Assembly (NCBI RefSeq): GCF_036391795.1
Contig: NZ_DASVZH010000041.1
Span: 1-56,489 of the forward strand
Direction of reading: 5' to 3'
DNA: 56,489 nucleotides
From: Oryzihumus sp.
GTDB taxonomy: Bacteria; Actinomycetota; Actinomycetes; Actinomycetales; Dermatophilaceae
Every line of letters begins with the position of its first letter. The stretch's first letter is position 1. The notes below the pieces were generated by a model. The model was not told the DNA's origin. It saw nothing but the letters and a program-made list of their open reading frames with translations, and searched no databases. Positions 75-48,853 of this stretch are shown here, piece after piece. Both the position numbers and the translations under genes were made by a program.

Positions 75-721
75 GGGGTGCCCGCGGCGGTGCGGACCTC
101 CACCCGGGCGATGTCGGACGACCGGGTGGCGCTGGCCGCGGTGACCTGCGAGACCTTTCCGGGCACCGCCGCCCAGGTGGCCACCTGCTCCGCGTGCCCC
201 GTGCGGTCGACCACGACCAGGGCGTAGGAGGCGTTGGTGTTGCCGTAGTAGCGGGTGTCGTAGGTGCAGGTCAGCTCGATCCGGGTGCCCCAGGGGACCC
301 CGACGAGGCGCGCGCTCGCATGCAGCGGGGTCACCGTGACCTGGCTCATCGCGGTCCCGACCGGCGCCGGCGTGGTGGAGGGGGTCCCGACCTGCGCCAC
401 ACCGCCGGCGACGGCCACGGCCAGCAGTGCGGCAGCCGCCGCGGCTCCGGCACCGCCCAGCACCCAGCGCCGGCGGAGCCGGTCCCGGCGCACCTCCCGG
501 GCCAGCCGGGGCAGCAGCGTCGCCGGGACCTCGGGCGGCGTGCTCTCGACCTCCTCGCGGGGCACCCGGGCGAGCAGGCCCGGCATACCGGCGAGCTCGC
601 GCACCGCGCGGGCGCAGTCGTCGCACGAGGCCAGGTGGGACTCGTAGTCGCGGCGGTCCTCCGGGGACAGGGCCCCGAGCACGTAGGCGGCGTCGTACTC
701 GGCGTAGGCGTCGGTGCTCAC
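53..721 (-). CDS. Zinc-binding (zf-HC2) transmembrane anti-sigma factor, RslA-like
   Basis: AAYVLGALS...HLASCDDC (HxxxCxxC) motif and one TM segment; GTG start overlaps the sigma stop (GTGA). Confidence 0.88.
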   Translation of the reverse strand: MSTDAYAEYDAAYVLGALSPEDRRDYESHLASCDDCARAVRELAGMPGLLARVPREEVESTPPEVPATLLPRLAREVRRDRLRRRWVLGGAGAAAAAALLAVAVAGGVAQVGTPSTTPAPVGTAMSQVTVTPLHASARLVGVPWGTRIELTCTYDTRYYGNTNASYALVVVDRTGHAEQVATWAAVPGKVSQVTAASATRSSDIARVEVRTAAGTPVLTLAS

Positions 722-1230
722 GAGGTCACCCCCATCTCCTGCAGGGCCAGGCGCAGGGCGCGCAGAGCGTAGTGCGTGCGGGACTTCACGGTGCCCTCGG
801 GCACCTCGAGGATGCGTGCCGCCTCGGCCACCGACCGGCCACGGTAGTAGCACTCGAGGAGCACGGCACGGTGCTCCGGCGAGAGCCGCGCCAGGGCGTC
901 GGCGACCAGCCACGACTGCAGCAGCTGGTCGGTGCGGTCGGAGGTGGGCACCTCGGGCGGCTCGTCGACTGCGAGCTCGTGGCGGTTGCGGGCCGAGCGC
1001 CACTCGTCCACGACGATGTGCCGCGCGACGGTGAAGAGCCAGGCGCGGGCCGAGCCGCCGGACTGGTCGAGCACCTGCGGCGAGCGCCACGCCCGCAGCA
1101 GGGTCTCCTGGACGATGTCCTCGGCCCGGGCGCGGTCCCCGCCGGTCAGGCGCAGGCAGAAACCCCACAGGGCGCCCGCGTGCTCCGCATGCAGGGCCTG
1201 CATCAGCTGGTCCGGGGTCTCGCTCACCAC
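718..1230 (-). CDS. ECF sigma-70 factor, SigL-like
   Basis: AEDIVQETLLRAW and RAWLFTVARH (region 2), VPEGTVKSRTHYAL (region 4); GGAGGT RBS before the GTG. Confidence 0.9.
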   Translation of the reverse strand: MVSETPDQLMQALHAEHAGALWGFCLRLTGGDRARAEDIVQETLLRAWRSPQVLDQSGGSARAWLFTVARHIVVDEWRSARNRHELAVDEPPEVPTSDRTDQLLQSWLVADALARLSPEHRAVLLECYYRGRSVAEAARILEVPEGTVKSRTHYALRALRLALQEMGVTS

Positions 1231-1280
1231 ACCTCCCACCGCCACCACGAGAGGGATGCCCCCATGGTTCACCCGGGAGG

Positions 1281-2279
1281 TCAGGGGTGCAGCACCGCCG
1301 CGCCGTCGAACGCCCCCGAGGCCAGGTCACGCAGGGCGCCGTCGGCCCACGCCAGCGGGTAGGAGTGGGTCGTGGCCCGCACCCCCAGGCGGGCGGCCAG
1401 GGTCAGCAGCTCCTCGCCGTCGGCGCGGGTGTTGGCGGTGACGCTGCGCAGTCGCCGCTCCTCGAACAGCTCGCGGTCGTAGTTGAGCGAGGGGATGTCC
1501 GACATCCAGATGCCGGCCACCGCGGCGGTGCCCCCGCGGTCGAGGGCCCGCAGCGCCACCGGCACCAGCTCGCCGCTGGGGGCGAAGAGGATCGCACCGT
1601 CGAGCTTCTCCGGCGGCTCGTCGGTCGGGCCGCCCACGGAGTCGGCGCCCAGCGCCAGCGCCAGGCGACGGTTGCGGTCGCCGCGGGTCAGCACGTGCAC
1701 CCGGATGCCCTGTTTGAGCGCGATCTGCGCGGTGAGGTGGGCGCTGCCACCGAAGCCGTAGACCCCGAGCGCGCCCCCGGGCCGGACCGCGGCGGCCTTG
1801 AGCGCCCGGAAGCCGATGATCCCGGCGCAGAGCAACGGCGCGGCCTGGTCGTCGCTGATGCCGTCCGGCAGCGCGTAGGCGAACCGTTCGTCGACAAGGC
1901 ACTGCTCGGCGTAGCCACCGTCGACGTCCCACCCGGTGAACGTCGGCGACAGGCACAGGTTCTCCTCGCCACGCCGGCAGAAGCGGCAGGTCCCGTCGGT
2001 GCCCCCGAGCCAGGCGACCCCGACCCGGTCGCCCAGGGCGAAGCGGCCGCTCCCGGGCCCGAGCTGGTCGACGACCCCCACCACCTCGTGCCCCGGGATG
2101 ACGCCGTGCCGCCGCGGGGTCAGGTCGCCCTCGGCCAGGTGCAGGTCGGTGCGGCACACCCCGCAGCACAGGACCCGCACCCTGACCTGTCCCGGCGCCG
2201 GCACGGGCGCCTCGCGCTCGACCTCCCGCAGTGGCCCGGTCGCGATGGGGCCCGGCTGGTCCACGATCCACGCCTTCAC
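1281..2279 (-). CDS. Zinc-dependent alcohol dehydrogenase family protein
   Basis: [16 protein letters not shown], structural-Zn CRFC...ENLC, APLLCAG, YGFGGSA. Confidence 0.92.
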
Positions 2280-2436
2280 GTCACGAAGCGTCGCGGGCCC
2301 TGCCGGGTCAGGTCGGGCCGAAGGTCCCCTTGGGCGCACCGAAGGCCCCGGTGCGCGCGAACCGGTTGCGCCGTGGCGACGGGTCGGCGAGCGTGGTCGG
2401 ACGTACGCCGTGCACCACCGACGAGGGGAACCACCC

Positions 2437-4815
2437 GTGGCGCTCGACCCGGACCTGCAAGCCGTAGACCTGTGGTGGCGCGCCGCGAACTACTGCGCCG
2501 TCGGCCAGATCTACCTGCTGGACAACCCGCTGCTGCGCGAGCCGTTGCGCCCCGAGCACGTCAAACCCCGGCTGCTGGGGCACTGGGGCACCAGCCCCGG
2601 GCTGAACCTGGTCTACGCCCACCTCAACCGGCTCATCCGCGAGCGCGACCTCGACGCGATCTTCGTCGCCGGCCCCGGGCACGGTGGGCCCGCGGTGGTG
2701 GCCAACACGTGGCTGGAGGGCACCTACAGCGAGGTCTACCCGCGGGTCGGGCAGGACGAGGAGGGGCTGCGCCGGCTGTTCCGCCAGTTCAGCTTCCCCG
2801 GCGGCATCCCCAGCCACGTGGCACCGGAGACCCCGGGCTCGATCCACGAGGGCGGTGAGCTCGGCTACTCCCTGGCCCACGCGTTCGGTGCCGCGTTCGA
2901 CAACCCCGGCCTGCTGGTCGCCTGCGTCGTCGGCGACGGTGAGGCCGAGACCGGCGCGCTGGCGGCGAGCTGGCACTCCACTGCGTTCCTCAACCCACTG
3001 ACCGACGGGTCGGTCCTGCCCGTGCTGCACCTCAACGGCTACAAGATCGCCGGGCCGACGGTGCTCGCCCGCATCCCCGAGGACCAGCTGCGCCGCCTGC
3101 TCGAGGGCGCCGGCTGGGAGCCGCGGTTCGTCACCGGCGACGACCCCGAGCAGGTCCACGTGGCCCTCGCCGAGGCGCTGGAGGAGTGCGTCGACATCAT
3201 CGCCGCCATCGGTGACCGGGCCCGCTCGGCCGGTCCCGACGAGCCGGTCGAGCGGCCCACCTGGCCGATGGTGGTGCTGCGCACGCCCAAGGGGTGGACC
3301 GGCCCGCGCGAGGTGGACGGGGTGCGGGTTGAGGGCACTTTCCGCGCGCACCAGGTGCCCCTGTCCGCGGTGCGCACCAACCCCGAGCACCTGGCGATGC
3401 TGGAGGAGTGGCTGCGCTCCTACCGGCCCGAGGAGCTGTTCGACGAGGACGGCGCCCCGGTCGACGCGCTCTGGCGGGCGGCTCCCCGCGGGCAGCGCCG
3501 GATGAGCGACAACCCGCACGCCAACGGTGGCCTGCTGATGCGGCCGCTGGACCTGCCGGACGCGGCCGACCATGCCGTCGAGGTGGCCCACCCCGGGCGC
3601 GGCGCCACCGCCGCCACGCAGGTGCTCGGCGGGTGGCTGCGGGACGTCATGGCGGCCAATGCCGACCGGTTCCGGGTCATGGGCCCGGACGAGACCGCCT
3701 CCAACCGGCTCCAGGACCTCTTCGAGGTCACCGACCGCACGTGGATGGCCCAGCGGTATGCCGGGGACGACCACCTCGCGCCGGACGGGCGGGTCATGGA
3801 GGTGCTGTCCGAGCACCTGTGCCAGGGCTGGCTGGAGGGCTACCTGCTCACCGGGCGGCACGGCCTGTTCAACTGCTACGAGGCGTTCGTGCACATCGTG
3901 GACTCGATGTTCAACCAGCACGCCAAGTGGCTCAAGGTCACCCGTGACCTGCCCTGGCGCATGCCGATCCCGTCGTTGAACTACCTGCTCTCCTCGCACG
4001 TCTGGCGCCAGGACCACAACGGCTTCTCCCACCAGGACCCCGGGTTCATCGACCACGTGGTCAACAAGAAGGCCGAGATCGTCCGCGTCTACCTGCCCCC
4101 GGACGCCAACAGCCTGCTGGCCGTGGCCGAGCACTGCCTGGCCGGCACCGACAAGGTCAACGTCATCGTCGCCGGCAAGAACCCCGCGCTGGACTACCTG
4201 ACCCTGGAGCAGGCCCGGGCCCACTGCGCGCGCGGGCTCGGGGTGTGGGAGTGGGCCGGCACCTCGGCCGGCGAGGTGCCCGACGTCGTCATGGCCTGCG
4301 CCGGGGACGTGCCCACCCTGGAGACCCTCGCCGCGGTGGCGCTGCTGCGCGAGCACCTGCCCGACCTGCGGGTGCGGGTGGTCAACGTGGTCGACCTGAT
4401 GCGCCTGCAGCCGACCGCTGAGCACCCCCACGGCTTGCCCGACCGCGACTTCGACGAGCTGTTCACCACCGACCGGCCCGTGGTCTTCGCCTTCCACGGC
4501 TACCCCTGGCTGATCCACCGGCTGACCTACCGGCGCACCAACCACGCCAACCTCCACGTGCGCGGCTACAAGGAGAACGGCACCACCACCACGCCCTTCG
4601 ACATGGTCATGCTCAACGACCTCGACCGCTTCCACCTGGTCATGGACGTCATCGACCGGGTGCCCGGGCTGGGGGTGCGGGCGGCGGGGCTGCGCCAGGA
4701 GATGGTCGACCGGCGCTTCGCGGCCCGGCAGTGGACGCGCGACCACGGCGAGGACGACCCGGCGGTCAGCGGGTGGGAGTGGCCCTGGCCGGCGCCGGAG
4801 GGGGCCGCCCGGTGA
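2437..4815 (+). CDS. xfp: Phosphoketolase (xylulose-5-P/fructose-6-P)
   Basis: [28 protein letters not shown]-binding [19 protein letters not shown]; start trimmed to the GTG after a GAGGGG RBS. Confidence 0.96.
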
Positions 4816-5904: not shown

Positions 5905-6525
5905 TCAGGCCGGACGGGTCAGCCGAGCCAGGGCGTCGAGGGCGACCCGTGGCCCGTCCTCGGTCTCGACCCGGCGCTCGACGCGGTCGGCGCGCACGAC
6001 CTCGAGCCCGAGGCCGGCGAGGTCGTCCACCACGTCGGCGGCGGTGAAGAGCACGGCCGGGTCCTGGGGGCCGCCCCAGCCGTGCTCGAGGTTGCTGCTG
6101 TCGTGGCCGACGACGAGCAGCGTGCCTCCCGGGGCGAGGGCGGCCGCGGCACGCCGGGTCGCCTCCCGGCGCAGGGGCGGGACCAGCTGGAGGTAGGCGA
6201 CGACGACGAGGTCGAAGGCGTCCGGCGGCCAGGTCACGGCGGTCGCGTCGGCGCAGACCCACTCGAGCGCCATCGGGGTGCCGCCGGCCTCGAGGCGGTC
6301 CTGGGCGGCGCGGCCCTTGGCCAGCCCCTGCTCGGCGAAGTCGGAGGCCGTGACCCGCCAGCCGAGGCCGGCCAGCCACAGCGCGTTGCGGCCCTCGCCG
6401 CAGGCCAGGTCCAGTGCGCGGCCGGGCGGCAGCCCGGCCAGCTCCGACTCGACCCACTGGTTGGGGCCGGCGGACCAGACGAGCTCCGACCCGGCATACC
6501 GGGTGTTCCAGGCGTCGGCGTCCAT
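5905..6525 (-). CDS. Class I SAM-dependent methyltransferase
   Basis: ALDLACGEGRNALWLA motif I. Confidence 0.9.
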   Translation of the reverse strand: MDADAWNTRYAGSELVWSAGPNQWVESELAGLPPGRALDLACGEGRNALWLAGLGWRVTASDFAEQGLAKGRAAQDRLEAGGTPMALEWVCADATAVTWPPDAFDLVVVAYLQLVPPLRREATRRAAAALAPGGTLLVVGHDSSNLEHGWGGPQDPAVLFTAADVVDDLAGLGLEVVRADRVERRVETEDGPRVALDALARLTRPA

Positions 6526-7687: not shown

Positions 7688-9085
7688 ATGACCACCTCAG
7701 CCGAGAGAACCACCGAGGCTCCGCAGTCGGGCACCCTCGACGCGGGCCTCAAGCCCCGCCACATCACGATGATCTCCATCGCGGGGGTGATCGGAGCAGG
7801 ACTGTTCGTCGGGTCCTCGACCGCCATCGCGGCCGCCGGACCTGCGGTCCTCGTCGCCTACGCCCTGGCCGGGACGCTGGTCGTCCTCGTCATGCGGATG
7901 CTCGGCGAGATGGCCACCGCCCAGCCCGACACCGGGTCCTTCTCCACGTATGCCGACCGCGCCCTCGGGCGCTGGGCCGGGTTCTCCATCGGCTGGCTCT
8001 ACTGGTGGTTCTGGGTGCTGGTCATCCCGATCGAGGCCACGGCCGGCGCCAAGATCCTCAACGGCTGGATCCCCAGCGTCTCGACGTGGGTCTTCGCCCT
8101 GCTCATCACGGGGCTGCTCATGGTCACCAACCTGTTCTCGGTGAAGAACTACGGCGAGTTCGAGTTCTGGTTCGCCCTGGTCAAGGTCGTCGCCATCGTG
8201 GCGTTCATCGTGCTCGGCGTGCTCGCCATCGCCGGCGTGCTGCCCGGCTCCCACGCCTCCGGCGTCAGCCACCTGTTCAGCAACGGCGGCTTCATGCCCA
8301 ACGGCTTCGGTGCAGTGCTCGCCGCGATGCTGACCACGATGTTCACCTTCATGGGCACCGAGATCGTCACCATCGCCGCCGCCGAGTCGCCCAACCCCGA
8401 GGCCGGGATCCGCAAGGCCGTCAACTCGGTGATCTCGCGGATCAGCCTCTTCTATCTCGGCTCGATCCTCGTCGTCGTCTCCCTGGTCGCCTGGAACGCC
8501 AAGGGCCTGGCGGACAAGGGCTCCTACCAGTTCGCCCTCGAGCAGATGGGCATCACCTGGGCCGCGCCGGTCATGGACGTGGTCATCCTGACCGCTGTCG
8601 CCTCCTGCCTGAACTCCGCGCTCTACACCGCCTCCCGCATGGCCTTCTCGCTCTCGCAGCGAGGCGACGCCCCGCGCGGCTGGTCCACCACGACGAGCCG
8701 GGGCGTGCCGGCCAAGGCCATCATCGCCAGCTCGGTGGTCGGCTTCCTCGGGGTCGCCGGCAACTACCTGCTCCCGGAGAAGATCTTCGGCTACCTGCTG
8801 GCCAGCTCCGGTGCCATCGCCCTGTTCGTCTACCTCGTCATCGCCTGCTCGCAGCTGGTGATGCGCCGCCGCCTGGATGCCGAGGGGCACCGGCCGGCCG
8901 TGCGGATGTGGCTGTTCCCGACGCTGACGTGGGCGACCATCGTCTTCATCGTCGGCGTGCTCGTGCTCATGGTGATCCGCCCGGAGCACCGGCTCGAGCT
9001 CGAGCTGAGCGTCGTCCTGGCGGCGGCGATTGTCGCCATCGGTGTCGCCCGGCGCAAGGGCCTGGTTCGGCATACCAGCGAGTAG
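7688..9085 (+). CDS. APC amino-acid permease, GabP-like
   Basis: LKPRHITMISIAGVIGAGLFVG, YGEFEFWF, about 12 TM segments. Confidence 0.9.
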   Translation: MTTSAERTTEAPQSGTLDAGLKPRHITMISIAGVIGAGLFVGSSTAIAAAGPAVLVAYALAGTLVVLVMRMLGEMATAQPDTGSFSTYADRALGRWAGFSIGWLYWWFWVLVIPIEATAGAKILNGWIPSVSTWVFALLITGLLMVTNLFSVKNYGEFEFWFALVKVVAIVAFIVLGVLAIAGVLPGSHASGVSHLFSNGGFMPNGFGAVLAAMLTTMFTFMGTEIVTIAAAESPNPEAGIRKAVNSVISRISLFYLGSILVVVSLVAWNAKGLADKGSYQFALEQMGITWAAPVMDVVILTAVASCLNSALYTASRMAFSLSQRGDAPRGWSTTTSRGVPAKAIIASSVVGFLGVAGNYLLPEKIFGYLLASSGAIALFVYLVIACSQLVMRRRLDAEGHRPAVRMWLFPTLTWATIVFIVGVLVLMVIRPEHRLELELSVVLAAAIVAIGVARRKGLVRHTSE

Positions 9086-12378: not shown

Positions 12379-14043
12379 ATGACCAATCACTCCGGGCGCT
12401 CCTCCGCGCCCAAGAAGGCCCGCTGGACCACCGCCAAGAAGGCGGAGGTCAAGAAGGGCCCCAAGAAGCCGCACCGCGGCCAGACCCCCCGCTCGTATGA
12501 CGACCGCGCGCCCCAGGCGCGCCAGGACCGTCCCGCGCGTCGTGAGTTCGACCGGGACGACCGTCCGCAGCGCTTCGACCGGGACGACCGCCCGCAGCGT
12601 CGTTTCGACCGGGACGAGCGTCCGGCGCGTCGTGAGTTCAGCCGCGACGACCGTCCGCAGCGCTTCGACCGGGACGACCGTCCGCAGCGTCGCTTCGACC
12701 GGGACGAGCGCCCGGCCCGCCGCGAGGAGGTCGTCGAGGCGCCCGTGACCGTCGCGGACGACAACGGTTTCGCCGCGCTCGGCCTGCCGACGCCGATCGT
12801 CGCCCGCCTCGCCCGGGACGGCATCACTGCGCCGTTCCCGATCCAGGCCGCGACCATCCCGGACGCGCTGGCCGGCAAGGACGTGCTCGGCCGTGGCCAG
12901 ACCGGCTCCGGCAAGACCCTGTCCTTCGGCCTGCCCATGCTGACCCGCCTCGCGGCGGGGGAGCGCGCCAAGCCCAACAAGCCCAAGGCGCTCGTGCTGG
13001 TGCCGACCCGTGAGCTGGCCATGCAGGTCAGCGACGCGCTCCAGCCGCTGGTGCACGTCCTCGGCCTGAGCCACAAGCTCGTCGCCGGCGGCATGCCCTA
13101 CCCGCCGCAGCTGATGGCGCTCGAGAAGGGCGTCGACCTGCTCATCGCCACGCCGGGCCGGCTCAACGACCTCATCGAGCGCGGCGCCGTCCAGCTCGAC
13201 GAGATCGCGATCGCCGTCCTCGACGAGGCCGACCACATGGCCGAGATGGGCTTCCTGCCCGAGATCACCGCGATCCTCGACCTCATCCCCGCCGGCGGCC
13301 AGCGCCTGCTCTTCTCCGCCACGCTGGACCGCGGCATCGACACCGTGGTCGAGCGCTACCTGACCGACCCGGTGACCCACTCCACCGACGACGCGACCGC
13401 GAGCGTCGCGACGATGGAGCACCACATCCTGCTCATCGAGCCGATGCACAAGAAGGTCATCACCGCCGAGGTCGCCAACCGCGAGGGCCGCACCGTCGTG
13501 TTCGTGCGGACCAAGCTCGGCGCCGACCGCGTCGCCGAGCAGCTGCGTGAGCAGGGCGTGTTCGCCGCGGCCCTGCACGGTGGCCTCAACCAGGGCGCCC
13601 GCAACCGCGTCCTGGGTGCCTTCCGTGACGGCAAGCTGCCGGTCCTGGTCGCCACCGACGTGGCCGCCCGTGGCATCCACGTGGACGACGTCAGCGTGGT
13701 GCTGCAGGTCGACCCGCCGGCCGACCACAAGGACTACCTGCACCGCTCGGGCCGCACCGCCCGCGCCGGTGACAAGGGGACCGTCGTCACCCTGGCCCTG
13801 CCGCACCAGCGTCGCGGCATGGAGCGCCTCGCCCGCGAGGCGGGCCTGGAGACCGTGCCGACGCGCGCCCTCCCCGGCGACGACGTGCTCGCGGCCACCG
13901 GTGCCCGGACCCCCAGCGGCGTCCCGGTGCCGGAGCACGAGTTCCGCCGCCTCCTCGAGGGCGAGAAGCGTCAGCACCGCCGCCCCGGCGGCCCCGGCCG
14001 CCCGCGCGGCCAGCGCAGCGGCTTTCGCGCCCCGCGCTACTGA
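12379..14043 (+). CDS. DEAD-box RNA helicase
   Basis: Q motif FPIQ, GQTGSGKT, PTRELA, TPGRL, LDEAD, FSAT, ATDVAARG, HRSGRTAR. Confidence 0.96.
   Translation: MTNHSGRSSAPKKARWTTAKKAEVKKGPKKPHRGQTPRSYDDRAPQARQDRPARREFDRDDRPQRFDRDDRPQRRFDRDERPARREFSRDDRPQRFDRDDRPQRRFDRDERPARREEVVEAPVTVADDNGFAALGLPTPIVARLARDGITAPFPIQAATIPDALAGKDVLGRGQTGSGKTLSFGLPMLTRLAAGERAKPNKPKALVLVPTRELAMQVSDALQPLVHVLGLSHKLVAGGMPYPPQLMALEKGVDLLIATPGRLNDLIERGAVQLDEIAIAVLDEADHMAEMGFLPEITAILDLIPAGGQRLLFSATLDRGIDTVVERYLTDPVTHSTDDATASVATMEHHILLIEPMHKKVITAEVANREGRTVVFVRTKLGADRVAEQLREQGVFAAALHGGLNQGARNRVLGAFRDGKLPVLVATDVAARGIHVDDVSVVLQVDPPADHKDYLHRSGRTARAGDKGTVVTLALPHQRRGMERLAREAGLETVPTRALPGDDVLAATGARTPSGVPVPEHEFRRLLEGEKRQHRRPGGPGRPRGQRSGFRAPRY
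12541..12720 (+). repeat. 90-bp tandem duplication encoding R/D-rich repeats in the helicase N-terminus
   Basis: 12541-12630 is near-identical to 12631-12720; encodes REF(D/S)RDDRPQRFDRDDRPQRRFDRDERPAR twice. Confidence 0.9.
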
Positions 14044-14118: not shown

Positions 14119-14679
14119 GTGGAATCCACATTCCTCACCGGGCATCTGCTTGTCGCGACCCCGCAGACCGGCGGCGAGGTGTTTCGCCGCAGCGTCGTGC
14201 TGCTCCTGCACCACGACGAGGAGGGCGCGCAGGGCGTGGTGATCAACCGCCCGCTCGACGCGACGGTCGACGCGGTGCTGCCCGGCTGGGAGGAGGTCGC
14301 CACCCCGCCCGCGCGCGTCTTCCAGGGCGGCCCCGTGGCCCTCGACTCCGCCCTCGGCCTGGTCTCGGTGCCCGGTGGGGGAGAGGCTCCGATGGGGGTC
14401 AAGCTGCTCTTCGGCGGCCTCGGCCTGGTGGACCTCGACATCCCGCCCCTGGTGGTCGCGCCCGAGATCGCGGGCCTGCGGATCTTCGCCGGGTATGCCG
14501 GGTGGTCGCCCGGGCAGCTCGAGGACGAGATCCGCGCAGGCGGCTGGTACGTCGTGGACGCCGAGGCCCGCGACGGCTTCAGCGCCGAGCCGGAGTCGCT
14601 GTGGCCCGACGTGCTGCGGCGCCAGCGCGGCAACCTGGCCCTGGTCGCCAGCTTCCCGGACGACCCCACGATGAACTGA
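14119..14679 (+). CDS. YqgE/AlgH (UPF0301) family protein
   Basis: LLVATP, GVVINRP, VFQGGPV, RIFAGYAGWSPGQLEDE; alternative start at 14110. Confidence 0.92.
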   Translation: MESTFLTGHLLVATPQTGGEVFRRSVVLLLHHDEEGAQGVVINRPLDATVDAVLPGWEEVATPPARVFQGGPVALDSALGLVSVPGGGEAPMGVKLLFGGLGLVDLDIPPLVVAPEIAGLRIFAGYAGWSPGQLEDEIRAGGWYVVDAEARDGFSAEPESLWPDVLRRQRGNLALVASFPDDPTMN

Positions 14680-16642: not shown

Positions 16643-16741
16643 GACCACAAGGGTGCGTGGTCACTCTCAGACCATCCTCGGAACCGCGCGGAGCCCCACC
16701 GTCCCGGCCACCCGGCATACCGGGCGCTTAGACTCGGGGAC

Positions 16742-18904: not shown

Positions 18905-19543
18905 GTGGCTGAGCTGCGCGCCGCCAAGGGCATGGGCGGAGAGACCTCACAGACCCTGGACCGCGGGCTTGGCGTGCTGCAGCTGCTGGGCTCCCGCGAG
19001 AACGCCGGGGGCCTGACGATCACCGAGATCGCCTCGGCGCTCGGCGTCGGCCGCCCAGTCGTCTACCGCCTGGTCGCGACCCTCGAGAGCCGTGACTTCG
19101 TCACCCGCCGCGAGGACGGCCGGATCCGGCTGGGCCTGGCCATCACCCGGCTGTCCTCCTCGGTCCTGCCGCTGCTGCGCGAGGCGGCGATGCCCATGCT
19201 GCGCACCCTGGCCGACTCGGTCGGGGCGACGGCGCACCTGACCGTCGTCGAGGGCGGGGAGGCCCTGGCCATCGCCGTGGTCGAGCCGTCCTGGACCGAC
19301 TTCCACGTCGCCTACCGCGTGGGCAGCCGGCACCGGCTGGAGTCCGGTGCCGCCGGCCGGGCGATCCTGGGCGCGCGAGCCGGCGACCCGGCATACGTCG
19401 TCTCCGACGGCGAGCTGCAGGCCGGTGCCCACGGGGTGGCGGCGCCGCTGGTCGGTGTCGCGGGGCTGGAGGCCTCCGTCGGCGTCGTGGCGATGGTGCC
19501 GCTGGACGTGTCGGCGGTGGGGCCCCAGGTCCAGGCGGCGGCC

Positions 19544-30681: not shown

Positions 30682-30704
30682 GTCAGGCAGACACCCCGGT
30701 ATGC

Positions 30705-30740
30705 CGTGGGGCCGGCTCGCGCACGCGGGCCGGCCCCACG
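30705..30740 (+). terminator. 16-bp stem hairpin after the nucleotidase gene
   Basis: CGTGGGGCCGGCTCGC-GCAC-GCGGGCCGGCCCCACG. Confidence 0.65.
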
Positions 30741-33119: not shown

Positions 33120-34409
33120 TCAGCCCTCGTAGACGGTGGGGATCGCGGGCTCGCCGCGGGACAGCTGGCGTGCCTTGGCAGGAAGCTCGGCCCGGGACTG
33201 CTCGTGACGGGCCCGCGCCTGCTCGAGGGAGGTCGCGCCCACGACCTCGCCGTCACGGACCAGCTCGACCAGCAGCGGGCGGTCGTCGCCGTCGTTCGCC
33301 GGCATCTCGCCCACGCCGATGACCTCCGCCTCGGCGATCCCGGCCGCATTGCGCCGGCGCAGCGCCCACTTGCGACCGGCCACCGTGGCCTTGTCCTTGC
33401 TCTTCTTGGCGACCCCGACCATCTCGCCGCTCGCGTCCTCGCGGGCGACCAGCTTGTAGACCAGGCCGGCGGTCGGCGCCCCCGACCCGGTCACCAGGGA
33501 GGTGCCCACGCCGTAGGCGTCGACCGGTGCGGCGGCCAGGGCGGCGATGGCGTGCTCGTCCAGGTCCGAGGTGACCACGATGCGCGTGCCGGTGGCCCCC
33601 AGGCCGTCGAGCTGCCGGCGCACCTCCCGCGCCTGGGCGAGCAGGTCCCCGGAGTCCAGGCGGACAGCCCCCAGCTCGGGCCCGGCGACCTCGACGGCAG
33701 TGCGCACCGCTGTGGCCACGTCGTAGGTGTCCACCAGCAGCGTGGTGCCCTTGCCCAGGCTGGCGACCTGTGCCTCGAACGCCTCGCGCTCGCTGTCGTG
33801 CAGCAGGGTGAACGCGTGGGCGCTGGTGCCGGTGGTCGGGACCCCGAACTCCCGGCCCGCCTCGAGGTTGCTCGTGGCGGCGAACCCGGTGACGTAGGCG
33901 GCGCGCGCGGCAGCCACCGCGGCGTCCTCGTGCGTGCGGCGCGACCCCATCTCGATGCATGGCCGTCCCTCGGCGGCGCCGGTCATCCTCGAGGAGGCCG
34001 CGGCGACGGCGCTGTCGTGGTTGAGCACCGAGAGCACGAGCGTCTCCAGCAGCACGGCCTCGGCGAACGTGCCCTCGACCACGAGCAGCGGCGAGCCGGG
34101 GAAGTAGCACTCGCCCTCGGCGTAGCCGTGGATGCTGCCCGAGAACCGGTATGCCGCGAGGTAGGCCAGCGTGTCCTCGTCCACCACGCCGGCGCTGCGC
34201 AGGCGCTCGATCTCGGCCACCCCGAAGCGGAATGCGGCCAGGTCCTGCAGCAGCCGGCCGGTGCCGGCGACCACGCCGTAGCGCCGGCCTTCCGGCAGGC
34301 GCCGGGCGAAAACCTCGAAGACGCAACGCCGTCCGGCTGCGCCACTGCGAAGGGCGGCCTGCAGCATGGTCAGCTCGTAGTGGTCGGTGAGCAGGGCGGT
34401 ACTCGTCAC
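33120..34409 (-). CDS. pncB: Nicotinate phosphoribosyltransferase
   Basis: [47 protein letters not shown]. Confidence 0.95.
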
Positions 34410-37077: not shown

Positions 37078-37870
37078 AGGCGGCTGCGTCGAGCTTGCAT
37101 CGGGGCCCGCACCGCCTGAGACGTCCGGTCCAGCCCCGGTCACGGAGGACCGTGGCCACGTCGGCTGCGACGAGGCAGGGTCGTTGGGTCACGTCCTGCC
37201 AGCCGAACCGGAGCGTCACCCACCCGTCGAGCAGCGCCCCGTTGTCGCGGGAGCGGTCGCGGAAGGCGCCCTCGCCGACATGGCCCAGACGACCGTCGAG
37301 CTCGACGAGGACACGTTGCTGCTCGTAGGCGTTGTCGTCACGCCAGCGGCGTCCGGCTCGCATCGAGTTCCGCTGCCTCGCGGCCGCCGGCAGCCCGTGT
37401 GACCGCTCGACGCCGGTGACGTAGCGCAGCTCCAGGACGCTCTCGGCGCCATCGGCCACGTCGACCAGCGCCAGGCCGAGCAGGGCGCCCCACCGGTGCC
37501 GACCGCGGCGGGACAGGGCAGCCACAACGGCCCAGCGGCCGACCACGCGGCGGTGGGCGGGCAGCAGCACCTCGACACCGGGCGGGTCGCGGTCGGTGAG
37601 CCCGTTGACCCGTGCGGCGCTGGCGTGAGAGAGGGCCGCGCCGTCGCCACACGCCAGCAGTGCGGCGCTGGCTCGGGTGAGCCACTCGACCGGGCCCATG
37701 TGCGTGATGTAGACGCCGCGGAACACCATCCGCCACCGCCCTGACGCGACGAGCCACTCCACCTGGCGAGGCGTCATCCCCAGCGTGAGGCACTGCCGCC
37801 GGCTGACCGCATCGCCCTGCGACCGGGCCAGGCGTTCGGCCCGTTCGCGTGCGAGCTCCCGGTGCGACAT
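37064..37870 (-). CDS. AbiEi-antitoxin-like N-terminus plus DUF559/Vsr-like endonuclease domain; probably internally deleted
   Basis: SQGDAVSRRQ, GRWRMVFRGVY, ALSHASAA, GAESVLE, VLVELDGRLGH, RDRSRDN, GWVTLRFGW. Confidence 0.78.
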   Translation of the reverse strand: MSHRELARERAERLARSQGDAVSRRQCLTLGMTPRQVEWLVASGRWRMVFRGVYITHMGPVEWLTRASAALLACGDGAALSHASAARVNGLTDRDPPGVEVLLPAHRRVVGRWAVVAALSRRGRHRWGALLGLALVDVADGAESVLELRYVTGVERSHGLPAAARQRNSMRAGRRWRDDNAYEQQRVLVELDGRLGHVGEGAFRDRSRDNGALLDGWVTLRFGWQDVTQRPCLVAADVATVLRDRGWTGRLRRCGPRCKLDAAAWVKT

Positions 37871-37960
37871 ACGACCCACGATCACGAATCCCGGCGGCCC
37901 GTGACAGCCCCGGCCTCGCGCCTGTGAATCGTGGGACTCCGGGAGCGACCCTTGTGGACA

Positions 37961-38890: not shown

Positions 38891-39657
38891 TGAAGCTGAC
38901 CATCATCGGCTGCTCCGGCTCGTTCGCCGGCCCGACCTCGCCGGCCTCGAGCTACCTGGTCCAGTCCGAGCATGAGGGCCGCACCTGGAACCTCGTCCTC
39001 GACCTCGGCAACGGCGCGCTCGGCGTGCTGCAGCGGCACATCGACCCGCGCGACATCGACGCGGTCGTGCTCTCCCACCTGCACCCCGACCACTGCATCG
39101 ACCTGTGCGGGCTCTACGTCGTGCAGCGCTACCACCCCGAGGGCGCGGCCAAGACCCCGCTGCCGGTCCACGGCCCCACCGGCACCGGCCCACGGATGAC
39201 CGAGGCCTACGGCCTGGACGAGCCGGACGCGATGGCCGCCGAGTTCGACTACCGCGACCTGCAGGAGCGCACGCCGGTGCAGATCGGCCCGTTCACGGTC
39301 ACGCCCTACCGCGTGAACCACCCGATCGAGGCCTACGGCCTGCGGGTCGAGGCCGACGGCGCGGTCCTGGCCTACACCGGCGACACCGACTCCTGCGACG
39401 CGCTGAAGCCGTTGATGGCCGGCGCCGACCTGGTCCTGGCCGACGCCGCCTTCGTCGACGGCCGCGACGACATCGAGGGCATCCACCTCTCCGGCAGCCG
39501 CGCCGCCCAGGCGGCGCTCGACGCCGGCGGGGTGCGGCGCCTCATGCTCACCCACATCCCGGCGTGGAACGACCCGGAGGTATGCCGTGCCCAGGCTGCC
39601 GGGGTGTGGCCCGGTGAGGTGGAGCTGGCGGTGCCGGACACGGCATACGAGCTGTGA
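38890..39657 (+). CDS. MBL-fold metallo-hydrolase (Rv1339/AtaC-like cyclic-nucleotide phosphodiesterase family)
   Basis: IGCSGS, LDLGNG, SHLHPDH, YTGDT, LTHIP; conserved murI-X-rph position. Confidence 0.88.
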   Translation: MKLTIIGCSGSFAGPTSPASSYLVQSEHEGRTWNLVLDLGNGALGVLQRHIDPRDIDAVVLSHLHPDHCIDLCGLYVVQRYHPEGAAKTPLPVHGPTGTGPRMTEAYGLDEPDAMAAEFDYRDLQERTPVQIGPFTVTPYRVNHPIEAYGLRVEADGAVLAYTGDTDSCDALKPLMAGADLVLADAAFVDGRDDIEGIHLSGSRAAQAALDAGGVRRLMLTHIPAWNDPEVCRAQAAGVWPGEVELAVPDTAYEL

Positions 39658-40416: not shown

Positions 40417-41039
40417 CCCGGCTGGTCCTGGCCACCCGCAACGCGCACAAGGTCCGCGAGCTCGGCCAGATCCTCGACGGGCTGGTCGACGAGCTCGGCC
40501 TGGAGGTCGTCGGCCTGGACGCCTACCCCGAGATCCCCGACGTCGTGGAGTCCGGCGTCACCTTCGCCGAGAACGCCACCCTCAAAGCGGTCGCCGTGGC
40601 CAAGGCCACCGGCCTGCCGGCGATCGCCGACGACTCCGGCCTGGCCGTCGACGTGCTCGGCGGCTCGCCCGGGGTGTTCAGCGCCCGCTGGGCCGGCCGT
40701 CACGGTGACGACCGGGCCAACCTCGAGCTGTTGCTGGCCCAGCTCGGTGACGTGCCTGACGAGGAGCGTGCCGCGGCGTTCGTCTGTGCGGCGGTGCTGG
40801 CGCTGCCCGACGGCGAGGTCGTCGTCGAGGAGGGCCGTATGCCGGGTCATCTCGCCCGGGAGCCGCGCGGCACCAACGGGTTCGGCTACGACCCGATCCT
40901 CGTCGTGGACGACGGGCGGACGGCCGCGGAGCTGAGCCCGGAGGAGAAGAACTCGATCTCCCACCGGGGCATCGCGTTCCGGGCGCTGGCGCCGCACGTG
41001 CGCCTGGCGCTGAAGCGCACCGCCGGCCCCAACCGTTAG
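40413..41039 (+). CDS. rdgB: dITP/XTP pyrophosphatase (HAM1)
   Basis: [42 protein letters not shown]. Confidence 0.95.
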
Positions 41040-41095: not shown

Positions 41096-42625
41096 GTGAA
41101 GCGAGCTCGTGCTGCCCTGGCCGGGGTGATCGCCGGTGCCGTCACCCTGGGCGTCGCCGAGCTGCTGGCCGGCCTCATGGTCGCTGCCGGCCTGTCCTCG
41201 GGGACACCGTCGCCGGTGGTGGCCGTGGGTGGCGCCTTTGTCGACCGCACGCCGGCCTGGCTGAAGAACGCCGCGGTGAGCTCGTTCGGCACCCACGACA
41301 AGGCGGCCCTGTTCGTCGGCATCGCCGTGGTCCTGACCGCGCTGTGCGCGGTGCTGGGTGCGGTCGGCGCCACCCGGCATACGGCCGGGCTGGTGGGGTT
41401 CGTCGTCCTGGGTGCCGTCGGCGCGGCGGCGGTGCTCTCCCGGCCGCACGCGTCGCCGCTGGACGTGCTGCCCACCTTCGTCGGGGTGCTGGCCGGGCTG
41501 TGGGCGCTGAACACGTTGTGGGACATGACCGCTCGTGCCGGGGAGGCCGGCGCCGGGGGCTTCGAACGGCGCCGGCTGCTCGTCGGCGGGGCGGCCCTGG
41601 CGGTCCTCGCCGCGACGGCTGGAGCGTTGGGCAGGGCGGTCGGGGGCGCCGGCAGCAGTGCTGCAGCAGCCCGGGCCAAGGTCAGCGTGCCGCCGGTGGC
41701 GAACCCGGTGACCGTTCCTGCGACGGCCGACCTGAAGCTGGCGGGCATCACGCCGTACGTGGTGCCCAACGGCGACTTCTACCGCATCGACACCGCGCTC
41801 GTCGTGCCGCAGGTGGACACCGCCGGGTGGACGCTGCGCGTGCACGGCCTCGTCGGCGAGGAGGTCTCGATCACGTGGGACGAGCTGCTCGCCAAGCCCA
41901 TGCGGCAGGCCCTCGTGACGCTGACCTGCGTGTCCAACGAGGTCGGTGGTGACCTGGCCGGCAACGCGGTGTGGACCGGCTGGCCGATCCGGGAGCTGCT
42001 GGCGATGGCCCGGCCGGACCCGACCGCCGACATGGTGCTGTCCACGAGCGTCGACGGGTTCACCGCCGGGACCCCGCTGACGGCGCTGACCGACGAGCGC
42101 AACGCGCTGCTCGCGGTGGCGATGAACGGCGAGCCGCTGCCCGTGGAGCACGGCTTCCCGGTGCGGATGGTCGTGCCCGGGCTGTACGGCTACGTCTCGG
42201 CGACCAAGTGGGTCGTGGACCTGAAGGTGACGCGGTTCGCCGACGACGTGGGCTACTGGACCCCGCGGGGCTGGTCGGCCAAGGGGCCGGTCAAGACCCA
42301 GTCCCGCATCGACGTGCCGCGCTCGGGTGACCAGGTCCGGGCGGGCCGGGTGGCCGTCGCCGGGGTGGCGTGGGCTCAGCACCGCGGCATCGACAAGGTC
42401 GAGGTGCGCATCGACGACGGGCCGTGGCAGACGGCGCGGCTGGCCACCGAACCGACGATCGACTCGTGGCGGCAGTGGGTGCTGGAGTGGGACGCCCCGA
42501 AGGGCAACCACCGGATCACGGTGCGCGCCACGGATGCCACCGGTCAGGTGCAGACCCAGCAGGAGGCGCCACCCGAGCCCGACGGCGCGACCGGCTGGCA
42601 CAGCATCACCGTCACTGTCACCTGA
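41096..42625 (+). CDS. Membrane-bound molybdopterin oxidoreductase (sulfite-oxidase/MsrP-like)
   Basis: About 5 TM segments then ERRRLL; DFYRID, TLTCVSN Mo-ligand Cys, MNGEPLPVEHGFPVR, GYW..RGW; alternative start at 41090. Confidence 0.9.
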   Translation: MKRARAALAGVIAGAVTLGVAELLAGLMVAAGLSSGTPSPVVAVGGAFVDRTPAWLKNAAVSSFGTHDKAALFVGIAVVLTALCAVLGAVGATRHTAGLVGFVVLGAVGAAAVLSRPHASPLDVLPTFVGVLAGLWALNTLWDMTARAGEAGAGGFERRRLLVGGAALAVLAATAGALGRAVGGAGSSAAAARAKVSVPPVANPVTVPATADLKLAGITPYVVPNGDFYRIDTALVVPQVDTAGWTLRVHGLVGEEVSITWDELLAKPMRQALVTLTCVSNEVGGDLAGNAVWTGWPIRELLAMARPDPTADMVLSTSVDGFTAGTPLTALTDERNALLAVAMNGEPLPVEHGFPVRMVVPGLYGYVSATKWVVDLKVTRFADDVGYWTPRGWSAKGPVKTQSRIDVPRSGDQVRAGRVAVAGVAWAQHRGIDKVEVRIDDGPWQTARLATEPTIDSWRQWVLEWDAPKGNHRITVRATDATGQVQTQQEAPPEPDGATGWHSITVTVT

Positions 42626-43072: not shown

Positions 43073-43202
43073 GCCGGGCCCTGGGAGACGCGCCGCGACC
43101 CGGCCTCGCCTGGAGCGGCCGACCCGGCCGCTCGGCATACCGGCTCCCGCACACGGCTGGGCCGGTCGGGCAACCAGCCCGGCCGGCCCAGGAAGCCTCG
43201 TC

Positions 43203-44393: not shown

Positions 44394-44870
44394 TCAGCCG
44401 TCCTGCACGCGCCCGCGCAGCGACTTGGTCTGGCCGCGGCGCCGCTTGCCCTCCAGCCGGCGCCGCTGCGCGCCCTTCGTGGGCCGGGTCGCGCGCCGCG
44501 ACGCCGGGGGAGGGGCCAGCCCCTCCAGCAGGTATGCCGCGAGCCTCGCCCGGGCGGCCGCGCGGTTCTGGCGCTGCGCGCGGTGCTCCGAGGCGGTGAC
44601 GACCAGCTCGGTGCCCACGAGTCTGGTGGCCAGGGCGCCGAGCAGCCGGGCGCGCTGGTCGTCGGTGAACGCGGTGGAGGAGGCGATGTCGAAGCGGAGC
44701 TCGACCCGGCTGTCGGTCGTGTTGACCCCCTGGCCACCGGGCCCGGAGGAACGGCTGAACCGCTCGCGCAGCTCGGCCGCCGGGATGGCCAGCGGCTGCC
44801 GGACGCCGGGGGCCGGGCCGAGCACCAGGTCCTCGCCGGGGTCCCCCCGATGCGTTCTCACGTCCGGCAT
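44394..44870 (-). CDS. arfB: Alternative ribosome rescue factor B
   Basis: FSRSSGPGGQGVNTTDSRVELRFD, RAQRQNR, basic tail RRATRPTKGAQRRRLEGKRRRGQTKSLR; alternative GTG start at 44861. Confidence 0.92.
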   Translation of the reverse strand: MPDVRTHRGDPGEDLVLGPAPGVRQPLAIPAAELRERFSRSSGPGGQGVNTTDSRVELRFDIASSTAFTDDQRARLLGALATRLVGTELVVTASEHRAQRQNRAAARARLAAYLLEGLAPPPASRRATRPTKGAQRRRLEGKRRRGQTKSLRGRVQDG

Positions 44871-44998
44871 TCTGCCTGCCCGGGGCGCGCCGGGGCATGT
44901 CCTAGGGTTGCCGGCCAGGGGGAGGGCGCGGAGGTGTCGGCGAGCAGTCGCCCGGCGGGCCGCGGGATGCAGGCAAGCGACGGCATACAAGGGGTGCG

Positions 44999-46983: not shown

Positions 46984-47772
46984 TCAGGCTGCCTCGAGCT
47001 GGTCACGCAACCGGTCGAGCACCCGATGCAGCCGCCGGGACACCTGCATCTGGCTGACCCCGAGCCGGCGGCCGATCTCCGCCTGGCTGAGCTCGTCCTC
47101 GAAGCGCAACCGCAGCAGCCGCAGGTCGGACGGGTCGAGCGTGCGCAGCGCGGCGGCCAGGGAGAGCCGGTCGTCCACCGCCACGCTGGGGTCGCCGTGG
47201 GGGTCGGCCAGCTCGTCGGCGAGCGCCCGGCGGTGCTCGTCGCGTTTCGCGTCCAGCGACGTCGGGGAGTAGCAGCCGGGCAGCTCCCGCGCCTCGGCCA
47301 CCGACCGCGCGTCGGTGCCGAGCACGTCGGCGAGCTGCATCGTGCTCGGCGGCTGCCCGAGGTCCTGCTCCAGGGCGGCGACGGCGGTCCGGATGTCGGC
47401 ATGCAGCTCCTGGAGCCGTCGCGGTGGCCGCACCGCCCAGCCGGCGTCCCGGAAGTGTCGGCGGATCTCCCCACGGATGGTCGGCTTGGCGAAGGCCAGG
47501 AAGCTGCCGCCCGCGTCGGCGTGGAAGCGGTGCGCCGCCTTGACCAGCCCGAGCATGGCGACCTGCCGCAGGTCCTCGGCCTCGAGGCCGCGACCGCGGT
47601 AGTGCGCCGCGATCGCGCAGGCCACGTCGAGGTTGCAGCAGACGACCTCGTCCCGGATCCGGCGGCAGACGCGCGGGTCGTGCTCGTGAGCGAGCTGGTC
47701 GAGCAGGCGCCGGGTCCTGGACTCACGAGTCCGGAACGAGGTGGGGGAGCAGGCGGTCAGCAACGGGGTCAT
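46984..47772 (-). CDS. SigB/SigF-family sigma factor
   Basis: EDLRQVAMLGLVKAAHRF, FAKPTIRGEIRRHFRD.GWAVRPPRRLQE, SQAEIG..LGVSQMQVSR. Confidence 0.92.
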   Translation of the reverse strand: MTPLLTACSPTSFRTRESRTRRLLDQLAHEHDPRVCRRIRDEVVCCNLDVACAIAAHYRGRGLEAEDLRQVAMLGLVKAAHRFHADAGGSFLAFAKPTIRGEIRRHFRDAGWAVRPPRRLQELHADIRTAVAALEQDLGQPPSTMQLADVLGTDARSVAEARELPGCYSPTSLDAKRDEHRRALADELADPHGDPSVAVDDRLSLAAALRTLDPSDLRLLRLRFEDELSQAEIGRRLGVSQMQVSRRLHRVLDRLRDQLEAA

Positions 47773-47865
47773 GGTGCATCCCGGGGAATGAAGGGGGCGG
47801 GCCGTTGCTGGACCTCACGTGCACCATACCCACGGCACCGCAGGAGGCGGCGCGCAGTGGGCGGC

Positions 47866-48420
47866 TCATTCGTCGCGTTCGTCCCTGGCGTCCCGGCCGT
47901 CAGCCTGGTCCCGCAGCTCGATCAGCTCGTCGTAGCGCTTCGGACCGTCAGGGACCTGCGGCTGCCCGAGGGCGTCGCTCCCGTCCCGGGCACCCGTGCG
48001 CGCTGACACGGTGTCGGGGTCGGCGATGCCGTCGGCCGGGTCGGGCCGCGTGTAGGCGGCCCCCGCCACGTGGCTGGCCCCGTCGCGGCCGACCTGCCCG
48101 GCCATCCAGGTCGTCGCGTAGTACTGGTGCAGGCTCAGCGCGTCGTCGAGGGAGGGTGGCCAGCCGTGGAGGGTCGGGGCCTGCACCACGGTGTCCTTGC
48201 CGTAGGGCAGCACGAGGTTGCCGGACTCCACCCGCGCCTCGGACACGGGCGCGAGGGCGTCGTGCCGGCCCAGCAGCCCGGTGCGGATGCGCAGCCAGGT
48301 GCCCTCCTGGCTGTGCTCCTCCGAGAGCACCTCCTCGATGCGGCCGATCTTCTCCCCGTCCTGGGCCCGGGCGGTCATACCCACCAGGGCGGCCAGCTCG
48401 TGTTCCTGCATGCAGGTCAC
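47866..48420 (-). CDS. PRC-barrel domain protein
   Basis: QDGEKIGRIEEV, IRTGLLG, LPYGKDTVVQAP. Confidence 0.75.
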   Translation of the reverse strand: MTCMQEHELAALVGMTARAQDGEKIGRIEEVLSEEHSQEGTWLRIRTGLLGRHDALAPVSEARVESGNLVLPYGKDTVVQAPTLHGWPPSLDDALSLHQYYATTWMAGQVGRDGASHVAGAAYTRPDPADGIADPDTVSARTGARDGSDALGQPQVPDGPKRYDELIELRDQADGRDARDERDE

Positions 48421-48484
48421 CTCTCTCCGCGGATCGTGGTCCGGCTCCCCCGTGCCCGGAGCGGGTGCGGTTCAACCCGCAGCG

Positions 48485-48853
48485 TCAGTCCCGTTCCCAC
48501 GGGGGCTCCTCGCCCATCTTGGAGTAGTAGCGCGCGAGGTGCCCCTTGACGCGGGCGATGTCGCGCTCGGGCAGGTCGACACCACCGCGCGAGCCCTGCA
48601 TCACCGCGGCCGCCGCCATGACCCCGCGGGGCACCGCCTTCAACCTGCCGTCGACCACGTCGGCCACGAGCAGCTTGTATGCCGTGTAGTTCTCCTTCGC
48701 GTCCGCGTCGTACCAGACGTGGGCGTCCCGGTAGCGGGCGTTGGGCTCCTCCTCGGCGCCGGCCCACTCCCGCACCCGCTTCTCCGCGGCGGCACCGTCC
48801 CACTCGCGGTCACGCTCGGCGAGCGGCAGGTCCTGGAACGTCGTCACAGCCAT
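48485..48853 (-). CDS. Conserved hypothetical protein (122 aa)
   Basis: GGAAGGA RBS, typical codon bias; DLPLA..DREWD...YKLLVADVVDG.LKAVP. Confidence 0.75.
   Translation of the reverse strand: MAVTTFQDLPLAERDREWDGAAAEKRVREWAGAEEEPNARYRDAHVWYDADAKENYTAYKLLVADVVDGRLKAVPRGVMAAAAVMQGSRGGVDLPERDIARVKGHLARYYSKMGEEPPWERD

Follow-up and report, generated by a model that had tools for sequence, protein, structure and literature searches.

To our knowledge, the only firmly documented uptake sequences are those of Pasteurellaceae and Neisseriaceae. The uptake signal sequence (USS) of the former (AAGTGCGGT, with extended flanks) and the DNA uptake sequence (DUS) of the latter (GCCGTCTGAA, with dialects and read by ComP) are the closest described systems to the octamer analyzed here, CGGCATAC (read as GTATGCCG on the opposite strand), which recurs in a contig of Oryzihumus sp. 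(NZ_DASVZH010000041.1, positions 1 to 56,489; this whole stretch of 56,489 nucleotides is called the window). As in the USS and DUS, the word is non-palindromic, has thousands of copies without replichore bias, an intergenic excess and hairpins formed by inverted pairs, originates by point mutation, is scarce in newly acquired DNA, and has lineage dialects and an extended flank. Unlike them, it occurs in a high-GC actinobacterial family, in which no more than 5 of 151 genomes have the type IVa pilus retraction ATPase. In this genome and its relatives the word is over-represented, overrides codon preference, is conserved, has dialects, forms hairpin pairs, excludes further copies on the same strand, has a periodic flank and marks a step in nucleotide skew. 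It is proposed here, with moderate confidence, that CGGCATAC is an oriented site at which homologous DNA enters or is cut in natural transformation, similar to an uptake sequence but strand-specific.

Other recurrent motifs were also compared. The FtsK orienting polar sequences (KOPS) and architecture imparting sequences (AIMS) are polarised architecture motifs, and like them CGGCATAC is an oriented 8-mer; unlike them, it has no replichore polarity here. It differs from repetitive extragenic palindromic (REP) sequences and bacterial interspersed mosaic elements (BIME) in having 70% of its sites in coding sequences (CDSs) and ~4 bits of flank information. With Chi (RecBCD/AddAB) it has in common being an oriented, over-represented 8-mer that implies processing of one strand, with AdnAB present; however, it shows no leading-strand bias, a strong same-strand exclusion, a long duplex-like flank and no covariation of AdnAB with dialect, and Chi is polarised on the leading strand (PMC8022716). 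HIP1 of cyanobacteria (GCGATCGC) is likewise a conserved octamer that abounds within genes and between them at regular spacing and is linked to gene transfer; unlike HIP1, which is methylated by DmtA and DmtC (PMC13756078), CGGCATAC is no palindrome, its orientation matters for its spacing and none of the five methyltransferase families scanned is shared by the motif-rich genomes tested.

The source genome of the window (G000; 3.98 Mb, 72.6% GC, 330 contigs and 3,803 CDSs by the gene calls made in this analysis) contains 1,572 copies of CGGCATAC, 771 on the forward and 801 on the reverse strand, so the word is not limited to the window. One protein encoded in the window falls into a 90% cluster together with proteins assigned to Oryzihumus, a genus that NCBI places in Intrasporangiaceae. 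The initial annotation of the window had counted 27 copies (13 CGGCATAC and 14 GTATGCCG), and every one was recovered at its exact coordinate and strand, against 0.71 on average and never more than 3 across 100 dinucleotide shuffles. Its 19 CDS copies and their six phases (TAT-GCC 5, GCA-TAC 8, ATG-CCG 2, CGG-CAT 2, GGC-ATA 1, GTA-TGC 1) were reproduced with independent gene calls. For the genome, Markov models of orders 0 to 3 predict 129, 58, 57 and 87 copies, an excess of ~28-fold over order 2, and orders 4 to 6 predict 383, 991 and 1,498. The excess over a Markov null thus holds through the lower orders and is gone at order 6, because both 7-mers within the word (CGGCATA, 1,653 copies, and GGCATAC, 1,618) consist almost wholly of the word itself. 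The fair test of enrichment is the codon-preserving null, in which five synonymous-codon resamplings gave 49-58 copies versus the 1,103 present in CDSs.

The use of rare codons pointed out in the window extends to the whole genome, with the word holding 487 of 1,287 TAT codons (38%) and 100 of 213 ATA codons (47%); between 12 and 35% of the peptide contexts in CDSs that permit the word actually use it. Its density is 9.4 per 10 kb outside genes versus 3.2 inside, and copies in CDSs are 527 sense versus 576 antisense, with no position bias within genes. Genes with low GC at third codon positions have 1.5 copies per 10 kb versus 3.1-3.9 in others, and low-GC contigs are also poor in it. The codon resampling and the genome counts together bear out a signal at the level of DNA that runs through the whole genome and prevails over codon usage, as had been suggested from the window.

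The spacing of the sites depends on their strand. In G000, same-strand pairs less than 750 bp apart number 34 versus 226 expected, with recovery by 1.5-2 kb, and between 50 and 750 bp there are 218 opposite-strand pairs versus 210 expected; control words in the same test cluster instead of avoiding each other. Because same-strand sites avoid each other and opposite-strand sites are independent, the sites of the window alternate strands (23 of 26 successive steps, p 9e-5), which the initial annotation had overlooked; genome-wide, 872 of 1,284 steps alternate. The 13:14 split, which had been treated as random, is not so, contig strands being more balanced than chance (chi2 42, 106 df). The absence of replichore polarity drawn from it does stand, with about equal counts on inferred leading and lagging strands (143:153 and 286:276). 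The replichores of G000 were inferred by synteny with the relative G002, replacing contig skew, which is a poor proxy; the terminus was placed by inference, and the leading strand so defined carries 59% of the coding DNA. The two replichores of genome G123 give splits of 18:18 and 11:12. The site is independent of the direction of replication and of transcription; judging from spacing and skew, each site would serve one strand over ~1 kb, with DNA processed there independently of the replication fork.

With pair counts given as observed/expected, G002 has 9/46 on the same strand versus 50/54 on opposite strands; this genome is 91% identical to G000, so that the results of the two are not independent. 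In the dialect genome G054, the variant word CGGCATCC at 50-500 bp has 62/93 versus 106/99, and in G000 CGGCATCC shows neither same-strand exclusion nor a skew step. The exclusion of CGGCATAC is far stronger than that of the DUS control (138/188 same versus 149/196 opposite) and, unlike it, strand-specific, with ratios of 0.13 versus 0.99 here and 0.73 versus 0.76 for the DUS. For Escherichia coli Chi, no same-strand exclusion was seen among the first 100 forward sites (12/13.9). A search across the class starting from a Neisseria genome gave no Pasteurellaceae, so the USS control consisted of 36 dereplicated metagenome loci of 124 (L327-L450), taken as Pasteurellaceae from their USS density alone; its spacing is 71/118 versus 103/128. 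Without hairpin pairs, the USS at 50-300 bp has 7/22.5 versus 27/24, a same-strand-only gap as for the word but weaker and shorter, though published uptake is orientation-independent. An even spacing of the USS has been described (Karlin, as cited in PMC1939737), and neisserial conversion tracts of 1.1-1.7 kb (PMC2397512) appear to resemble in length the range of the exclusion.

A step in GC skew is centered near the sites, as read at fourfold sites on the CGGCATAC strand from the mean of sense and antisense genes. In G000 the skew 3' of the word is +0.093 at +15 to +100, +0.051 to 250 and +0.024 to 500, with -0.052 at -250 to -100 and values near zero beyond 1-2 kb. Across ±250 bp this gives a step of 0.100±0.007 from C-rich to G-rich, versus -0.010 to +0.015 at six one-mismatch control words. 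All eight codon families shift in the same way, the flip lies ~30-60 bp 5' of the core, and the step holds under gene fixed effects and position-in-gene terms. It is 0.107 on the inferred leading versus 0.112 on the lagging strand (0.097 versus 0.123 in G002), and the replichore skew itself is near zero. It also follows the dialect, being 0.085±0.012 at CGGCATCC in G054 and 0.004±0.012 at CGGCATCC in G000. Because a C-to-G flip reads alike from either strand, the step by itself indicates that DNA is processed at the site but not in which direction; pooled data give a stronger 3' side, which antisense sites do not clearly show. Near sites, A+T at silent positions is lower, and the silent divergence between G000 and G002 is hardly so (-0.016±0.009, a weak effect). 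About 70% of the fourfold-site differences between these two genomes are G-C swaps (0.135 of 0.193).

The exclusion also defines a wider word class, CGNNATAC. When 29,554 8-mers were ranked by their same-strand avoidance of the word, CGCGATAC, CGTCATAC and CGCCATAC came at the top together with overlapping words, and 570 non-canonical CGNNATAC copies in G000 have 33/121 pairs on the same strand versus 123/121 on the opposite; the exclusion is lost, or almost lost, when word positions 1, 2 or 5-7 are changed. The extended site is ~55 bp with a helical-period flank: base preferences, corrected for codon position, are shared from -38 to +16 around 1,053 genic and 363 intergenic unpaired sites, and in the 5' flank blocks rich in C and in G are spaced by about one helical turn, with only ~4 bits of information past the core. 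The commonest extension, read as GTATGCCGT, has ATGCCGT in common with the AT-extended neisserial DUS, which is probably a coincidence. Close inverted pairs (<50 bp apart) number 52 in G000, 44 of them outside CDSs, with a median of 15 stem pairs; a T run is present in only 2 of these hairpins, and their use as terminators is likely secondary. The pair in the window is predicted to be terminator-like (21371-21412, -41.8 kcal/mol, z -6.6). Beyond the 27 exact copies, the window contains eight non-canonical CGNNATAC variants that had been overlooked. Its sites are as follows:

581..588, + strand: exact CGGCATAC, in CDS (antisense)
3756..3763, - strand: exact CGGCATAC, in CDS (TAT-GCC)
6492..6499, + strand: exact CGGCATAC, in CDS (TAT-GCC)
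7948..7955, - strand: exact CGGCATAC, in CDS (TAT-GCC)
9068..9075, + strand: exact CGGCATAC, in CDS (CGG-CAT)
12495..12502, - strand: class variant CGTCATAC, in CDS
14493..14500, - strand: exact CGGCATAC, in CDS (TAT-GCC)
16713..16720, + strand: exact CGGCATAC, intergenic
17752..17759, - strand: exact CGGCATAC, in CDS (TAT-GCC)
19389..19396, + strand: exact CGGCATAC, in CDS (GCA-TAC)
20048..20055, - strand: exact CGGCATAC, intergenic
21371..21412, no strand: inverted pair 21381-21388 (+) / 21395-21402 (-), perfect 19-bp stem following the gene that ends at 21352
21838..21845, - strand: exact CGGCATAC, intergenic
23661..23668, + strand: exact CGGCATAC, in CDS (GCA-TAC)
24988..24995, - strand: class variant CGACATAC, in CDS
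26330..26337, + strand: class variant CGTCATAC, gene edge
26404..26411, - strand: exact CGGCATAC, in CDS (GCA-TAC)
28638..28645, - strand: class variant CGTCATAC, intergenic
28910..28917, + strand: exact CGGCATAC, in CDS (GCA-TAC)
30699..30706, - strand: exact CGGCATAC, intergenic
30960..30967, + strand: exact CGGCATAC, in CDS (GGC-ATA)
34149..34156, - strand: exact CGGCATAC, in CDS (GCA-TAC)
37865..37872, + strand: class variant CGACATAC, intergenic
39580..39587, - strand: exact CGGCATAC, in CDS (GTA-TGC)
39641..39648, + strand: exact CGGCATAC, in CDS (GCA-TAC)
40837..40844, - strand: exact CGGCATAC, in CDS (ATG-CCG)
41375..41382, + strand: exact CGGCATAC, in CDS (CGG-CAT)
43133..43140, + strand: exact CGGCATAC, intergenic
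44532..44539, - strand: exact CGGCATAC, in CDS (GCA-TAC)
44981..44988, + strand: exact CGGCATAC, intergenic
48677..48684, - strand: exact CGGCATAC, in CDS (GCA-TAC)
50600..50607, - strand: class variant CGCCATAC, in CDS
53073..53080, - strand: class variant CGCGATAC, in CDS
55972..55979, + strand: rare class member CGAAATAC, assigned to the class by the pattern CGNNATAC

In the family sample of 151 genomes, 80 have 725-5,422 copies of the word and 71 have at most 392, and none of the 296 comparison genomes from outside the family exceeds ~52 copies per Mb, versus 395 per Mb in G000; the latter set includes the unpublished G439, G444, G451 and G660, without which the result is unchanged. The CGGCATCC dialect reaches at least 2,200 copies in 10 of the 151 genomes, two of which keep 1,200-1,400 copies of CGGCATAC. 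The genus g74 is a dialect switch caught midway, with 1,410 CGGCATAC and 2,611 CGGCATCC in G124, 1,218 and 2,202 in G158, and 294 and 4,174 in G075. Motif-poor relatives often have such a one-letter dialect, CGGCATCC or else CGGCGTAC or CCGCATAC, the last two seen in 20-kb samples only. In G005 (L056) and G006 (L057) the third position is relaxed, with 12 copies of CGTCATAC versus 13 of CGGCATAC in 20 kb of G005, and the word-poor G010 (L028) and G048 (L036) are enriched in other words over 20 kb, CCGCATCG with 21 copies and CCCCCTTC with 15, a possible further dialect or a repeat. On a ComEC tree of 41 rows, built with a quick search only, genomes with the canonical word do not group together, and those of the ATCC dialect form two clades apart from each other.

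Conservation in relatives, which had been suggested as a check, was found between G000 and G002, where 237 of 264 sites are kept while fourfold sites differ by 19%; among unshared sites, 34 of 45 differ by one base. Three codon-locked control words are as conserved as the motif (0.86-0.93 versus 0.85), and the conservation of the motif was therefore judged against one-mismatch words (0.43-0.62). No motif-rich phage was found: of 120 hairpin-pattern loci, 2 were at least 8 kb long and had at least five sites, with a top extra density of 3.4 per 10 kb among 80 loci of at least 4 kb with the 14-mer. Tetrasphaera phage TJE1, whose host may or may not be motif-rich, has 2 copies in 49 kb, and the search for a plasmid of a known motif-rich host found none. 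Wastewater phosphate accumulators are reported to belong to the family (PMC9123174).

Several components are new: the same-strand exclusion, the class CGNNATAC, the ~55-bp helical flank and the dialect-following skew step. A protein likely starts one-strand processing of DNA at the word, and this probably occurs during uptake of DNA from the cell's own kind. As an oriented entry site, the word would be bound as duplex over ~5 helical turns, the DNA would be cut or opened at the skew flip, ~30-60 bp 5' of the core, and one strand would be carried through ComEC, DprA and RecA as a ~1-kb tract; each strand would therefore need its own sites, and a second same-strand site within the tract would add little. 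Damage or biased repair of single-stranded or heteroduplex tracts could leave the skew step, biased uptake and recombination would maintain the word despite codon preference, and the dialect would shift when the reader changes. The population-level traits appear to be those of uptake sequences, whose published properties the word matches (PMC1939737, PMC2397512, PMC7811141, PMC3630211). Among the analogies drawn in the initial annotation, the uptake sequence fits best, and the HIP1/methylation branch was not supported. The word is real and family-wide; judging from its sequence traits, it would work most like the USS and DUS and differ from them by the pilus feature and strand specificity, as a variant rather than a member. 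More tentatively, it may represent a third uptake-sequence system and the first in high-GC Gram-positives, a strand-polar signal read without type IVa pili, with a cut or opening ~30-60 bp from the word, import of one defined strand over ~1 kb and, at every site, a mutational step exceeding the replichore skew.

If true, the exclusion together with the skew step would generally allow such sites and their alphabets to be recognized in any genome from sequence alone; the word, its alphabet, the ~55-bp footprint, the likely cut zone and the ~1-kb range are all readable in this way. Motif-poor sister genera are natural negative controls and ATCC-dialect genera are switch controls. The question bears on how actinobacteria choose and process incoming DNA and distinguish strands without MutS/MutL, and if the word promotes uptake, it would be a genetic handle for a family with few tools.

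Genes for competence are found across the family. All 151 genomes have intact comEC and dprA, and G000 carries comEA-comEC, yraN-comM-dprA, adnAB and tad genes; in Micrococcus luteus, the transformation set consists of tad, comEC and dprA orthologues (PMC4322843). TadE was present in 34 of 34 genomes and AdnA in 30 of 30, motif-poor ones included. Motif abundance was compared with methyltransferase and competence genes, as had been suggested earlier, and with repair genes; ComEC, DprA, AdnA and TadE are universal, so they were uninformative, and none of the five methyltransferase families scanned is shared. The type IVa pilus was rejected as the reader, since the PilT-family retraction ATPase is nearly absent from the family, with strong matches in only 5 of 151 genomes and a match over the cut-off in 1. 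One contig of G000 ends in pilB and a pilT cut down to its 5' half (C125:3-2429), with no pilA, pilC or pilM found in the assembly, and such genes are rare in the family. The tad-1 genes tadA, tadB and most of tadC, together with the 5' part of the neighbor gene, are missing beside flp in G000 (C154 ~22358-23680 versus L592 of G002), through a recent deletion or an assembly fault; tadA1, full-length or partial, is in 17 of 20 relatives' loci, and the tad-1 pilins found in 18 of 20 were used for a residue test. No convincing dialect-tracking residues were found in DegV, AdnA, AdnB, Flp, TadE1, TadE2 or TadG. Between degV and comEA lies a gene which we take to be plsY-like (G000 C322:752-1339), present in 11 of 19 word-bearing loci (L026-L065) versus 1 of 19 word-poor ones, a difference that is probably lineage-linked.

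A number of observations weigh against an entry site for transforming DNA. No reader protein was found among the pilus, competence, repair and methyltransferase candidates; competence genes are as complete in motif-poor as in motif-rich genomes; and G000, whose assembly lacks tad-1 tadA/B/C, nevertheless equals G002 in word density. No columns track the ATAC-to-ATCC switch in ComEA (C-terminal 141 aa) or the tad-1 pilins, and in ComEC only two L-to-V columns do, which is not convincing. The signal is weaker in nine other motif-rich genera (28/53 same versus 58/57 opposite; skew step 0.037±0.024), and 80 kb of G123 show no strand difference (4/9.3 versus 5/10.4). The exclusion about strong sites is symmetric, with no directional asymmetry. 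Among the controls, the DUS is orientation-blind and, unlike the word, lacks a skew step (-0.008±0.021); at the USS the step is only 0.031±0.025. The USS and DUS act irrespective of orientation (PMC1939737); uptake drive in its simple form would dilute both orientations, so that the one-strand tract is an extra assumption. NucS cuts G/G and T/T and not C/C mismatches (PMC6159515), and biased cleavage of heteroduplex by it fits the G/C step but not the A/T pattern, as the predicted T>A 3' of the site was not seen.

It is possible, though rather doubtful, that the word is instead an intracellular, strand-specific loading or stop site for repair or recombination every 1-2 kb per strand, either an unpolarised Chi-like site for AdnAB or another helicase-nuclease, or a NucS-type nick site; it would then be an undescribed repair signal. 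Such a site yields same-strand exclusion with opposite-strand independence directly, two-ended breaks require no replichore bias, and the skew step fits resection or resynthesis starting at the site; AdnA in every genome searched, the lower A+T at silent sites and the unpolarised Chi candidates in Vibrio (PMC8022716) also agree with it. However, E. coli Chi is leading-strand polarised and without exclusion, 0 of 944 conserved AdnA/AdnB columns track the ATAC-to-ATCC switch (a weak test, with 20 genomes), silent divergence is barely lower near sites, and many family members seem to be without such a word. The 55-bp helical flank would suit duplex binding over a single-strand channel, and hairpin pairs and dialects are DUS traits.

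A priming or replication-restart site on each strand, for primase or PrimPol, is improbable. The C-to-G flip does look like that of a small origin and the 1-2 kb scale matches Okazaki fragments; however, site counts and skew step are equal on the inferred leading and lagging strands, as are the counts in G123, and a priming signal on which cells depend would hardly be lacking in about half of the family. Slightly less probable still is a nucleoid, architectural or transcription-related protein site with hairpins as terminators, which would account for the helical flank, intergenic excess, hairpins and even spacing, but does not predict the one-strand exclusion or the skew step; moreover, only 52 pairs occur among 1,572 sites, and sense and antisense copies are about equally frequent, with no positional preference in genes. 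The plain nucleoid-protein site that the initial annotation had offered thus falls short on same-strand-only exclusion and skew.

Accumulation driven by a methyltransferase, as for HIP1, or a one-strand methylation mark is very unlikely. Some one-base neighbors of the word are depleted, and its bipartite CG-NN-ATAC shape recalls asymmetric restriction-modification sites. However, G000 has 0 matches to the five Pfam families scanned (PF02384, PF01555, PF07669, PF00145 and PF02086, other folds being possible), the complete genome G115 has only PF02086, and no family is common to the motif-rich genomes examined; the dialects between them alter each of the two A positions in the core, and the non-palindromic word also departs from the HIP1 type proposed earlier. 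For most sites, descent from a decayed repeat, whether REP-like or mobile, and an artefact of codon usage can both be dismissed as scarcely credible. A small family of similar hairpins does exist, but the sites lie mostly in CDSs in all six phases, far exceed the resampling null, have only ~4 bits of flank and are gained and lost by point changes.

The initial annotation knew of no description of the word in actinobacteria, and word and topic searches of the literature, mostly outside subscription papers, likewise gave no prior description of CGGCATAC/GTATGCCG, although Dataset S6 of PMC8022716, on over-represented octamers, was outside reach and may list it. The single text match to CGGCATAC was a Ralstonia paper on multilocus variable-number tandem-repeat analysis, and GTATGCCG had none. 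Soil metagenome contigs span the window with few differences and carry no information on mechanism. The window has no canonical site 3' of 48684, and an IS3-family transposase at 55059-55955 (region 54041-56489) matches IS3 transposases on actinobacterial plasmids.

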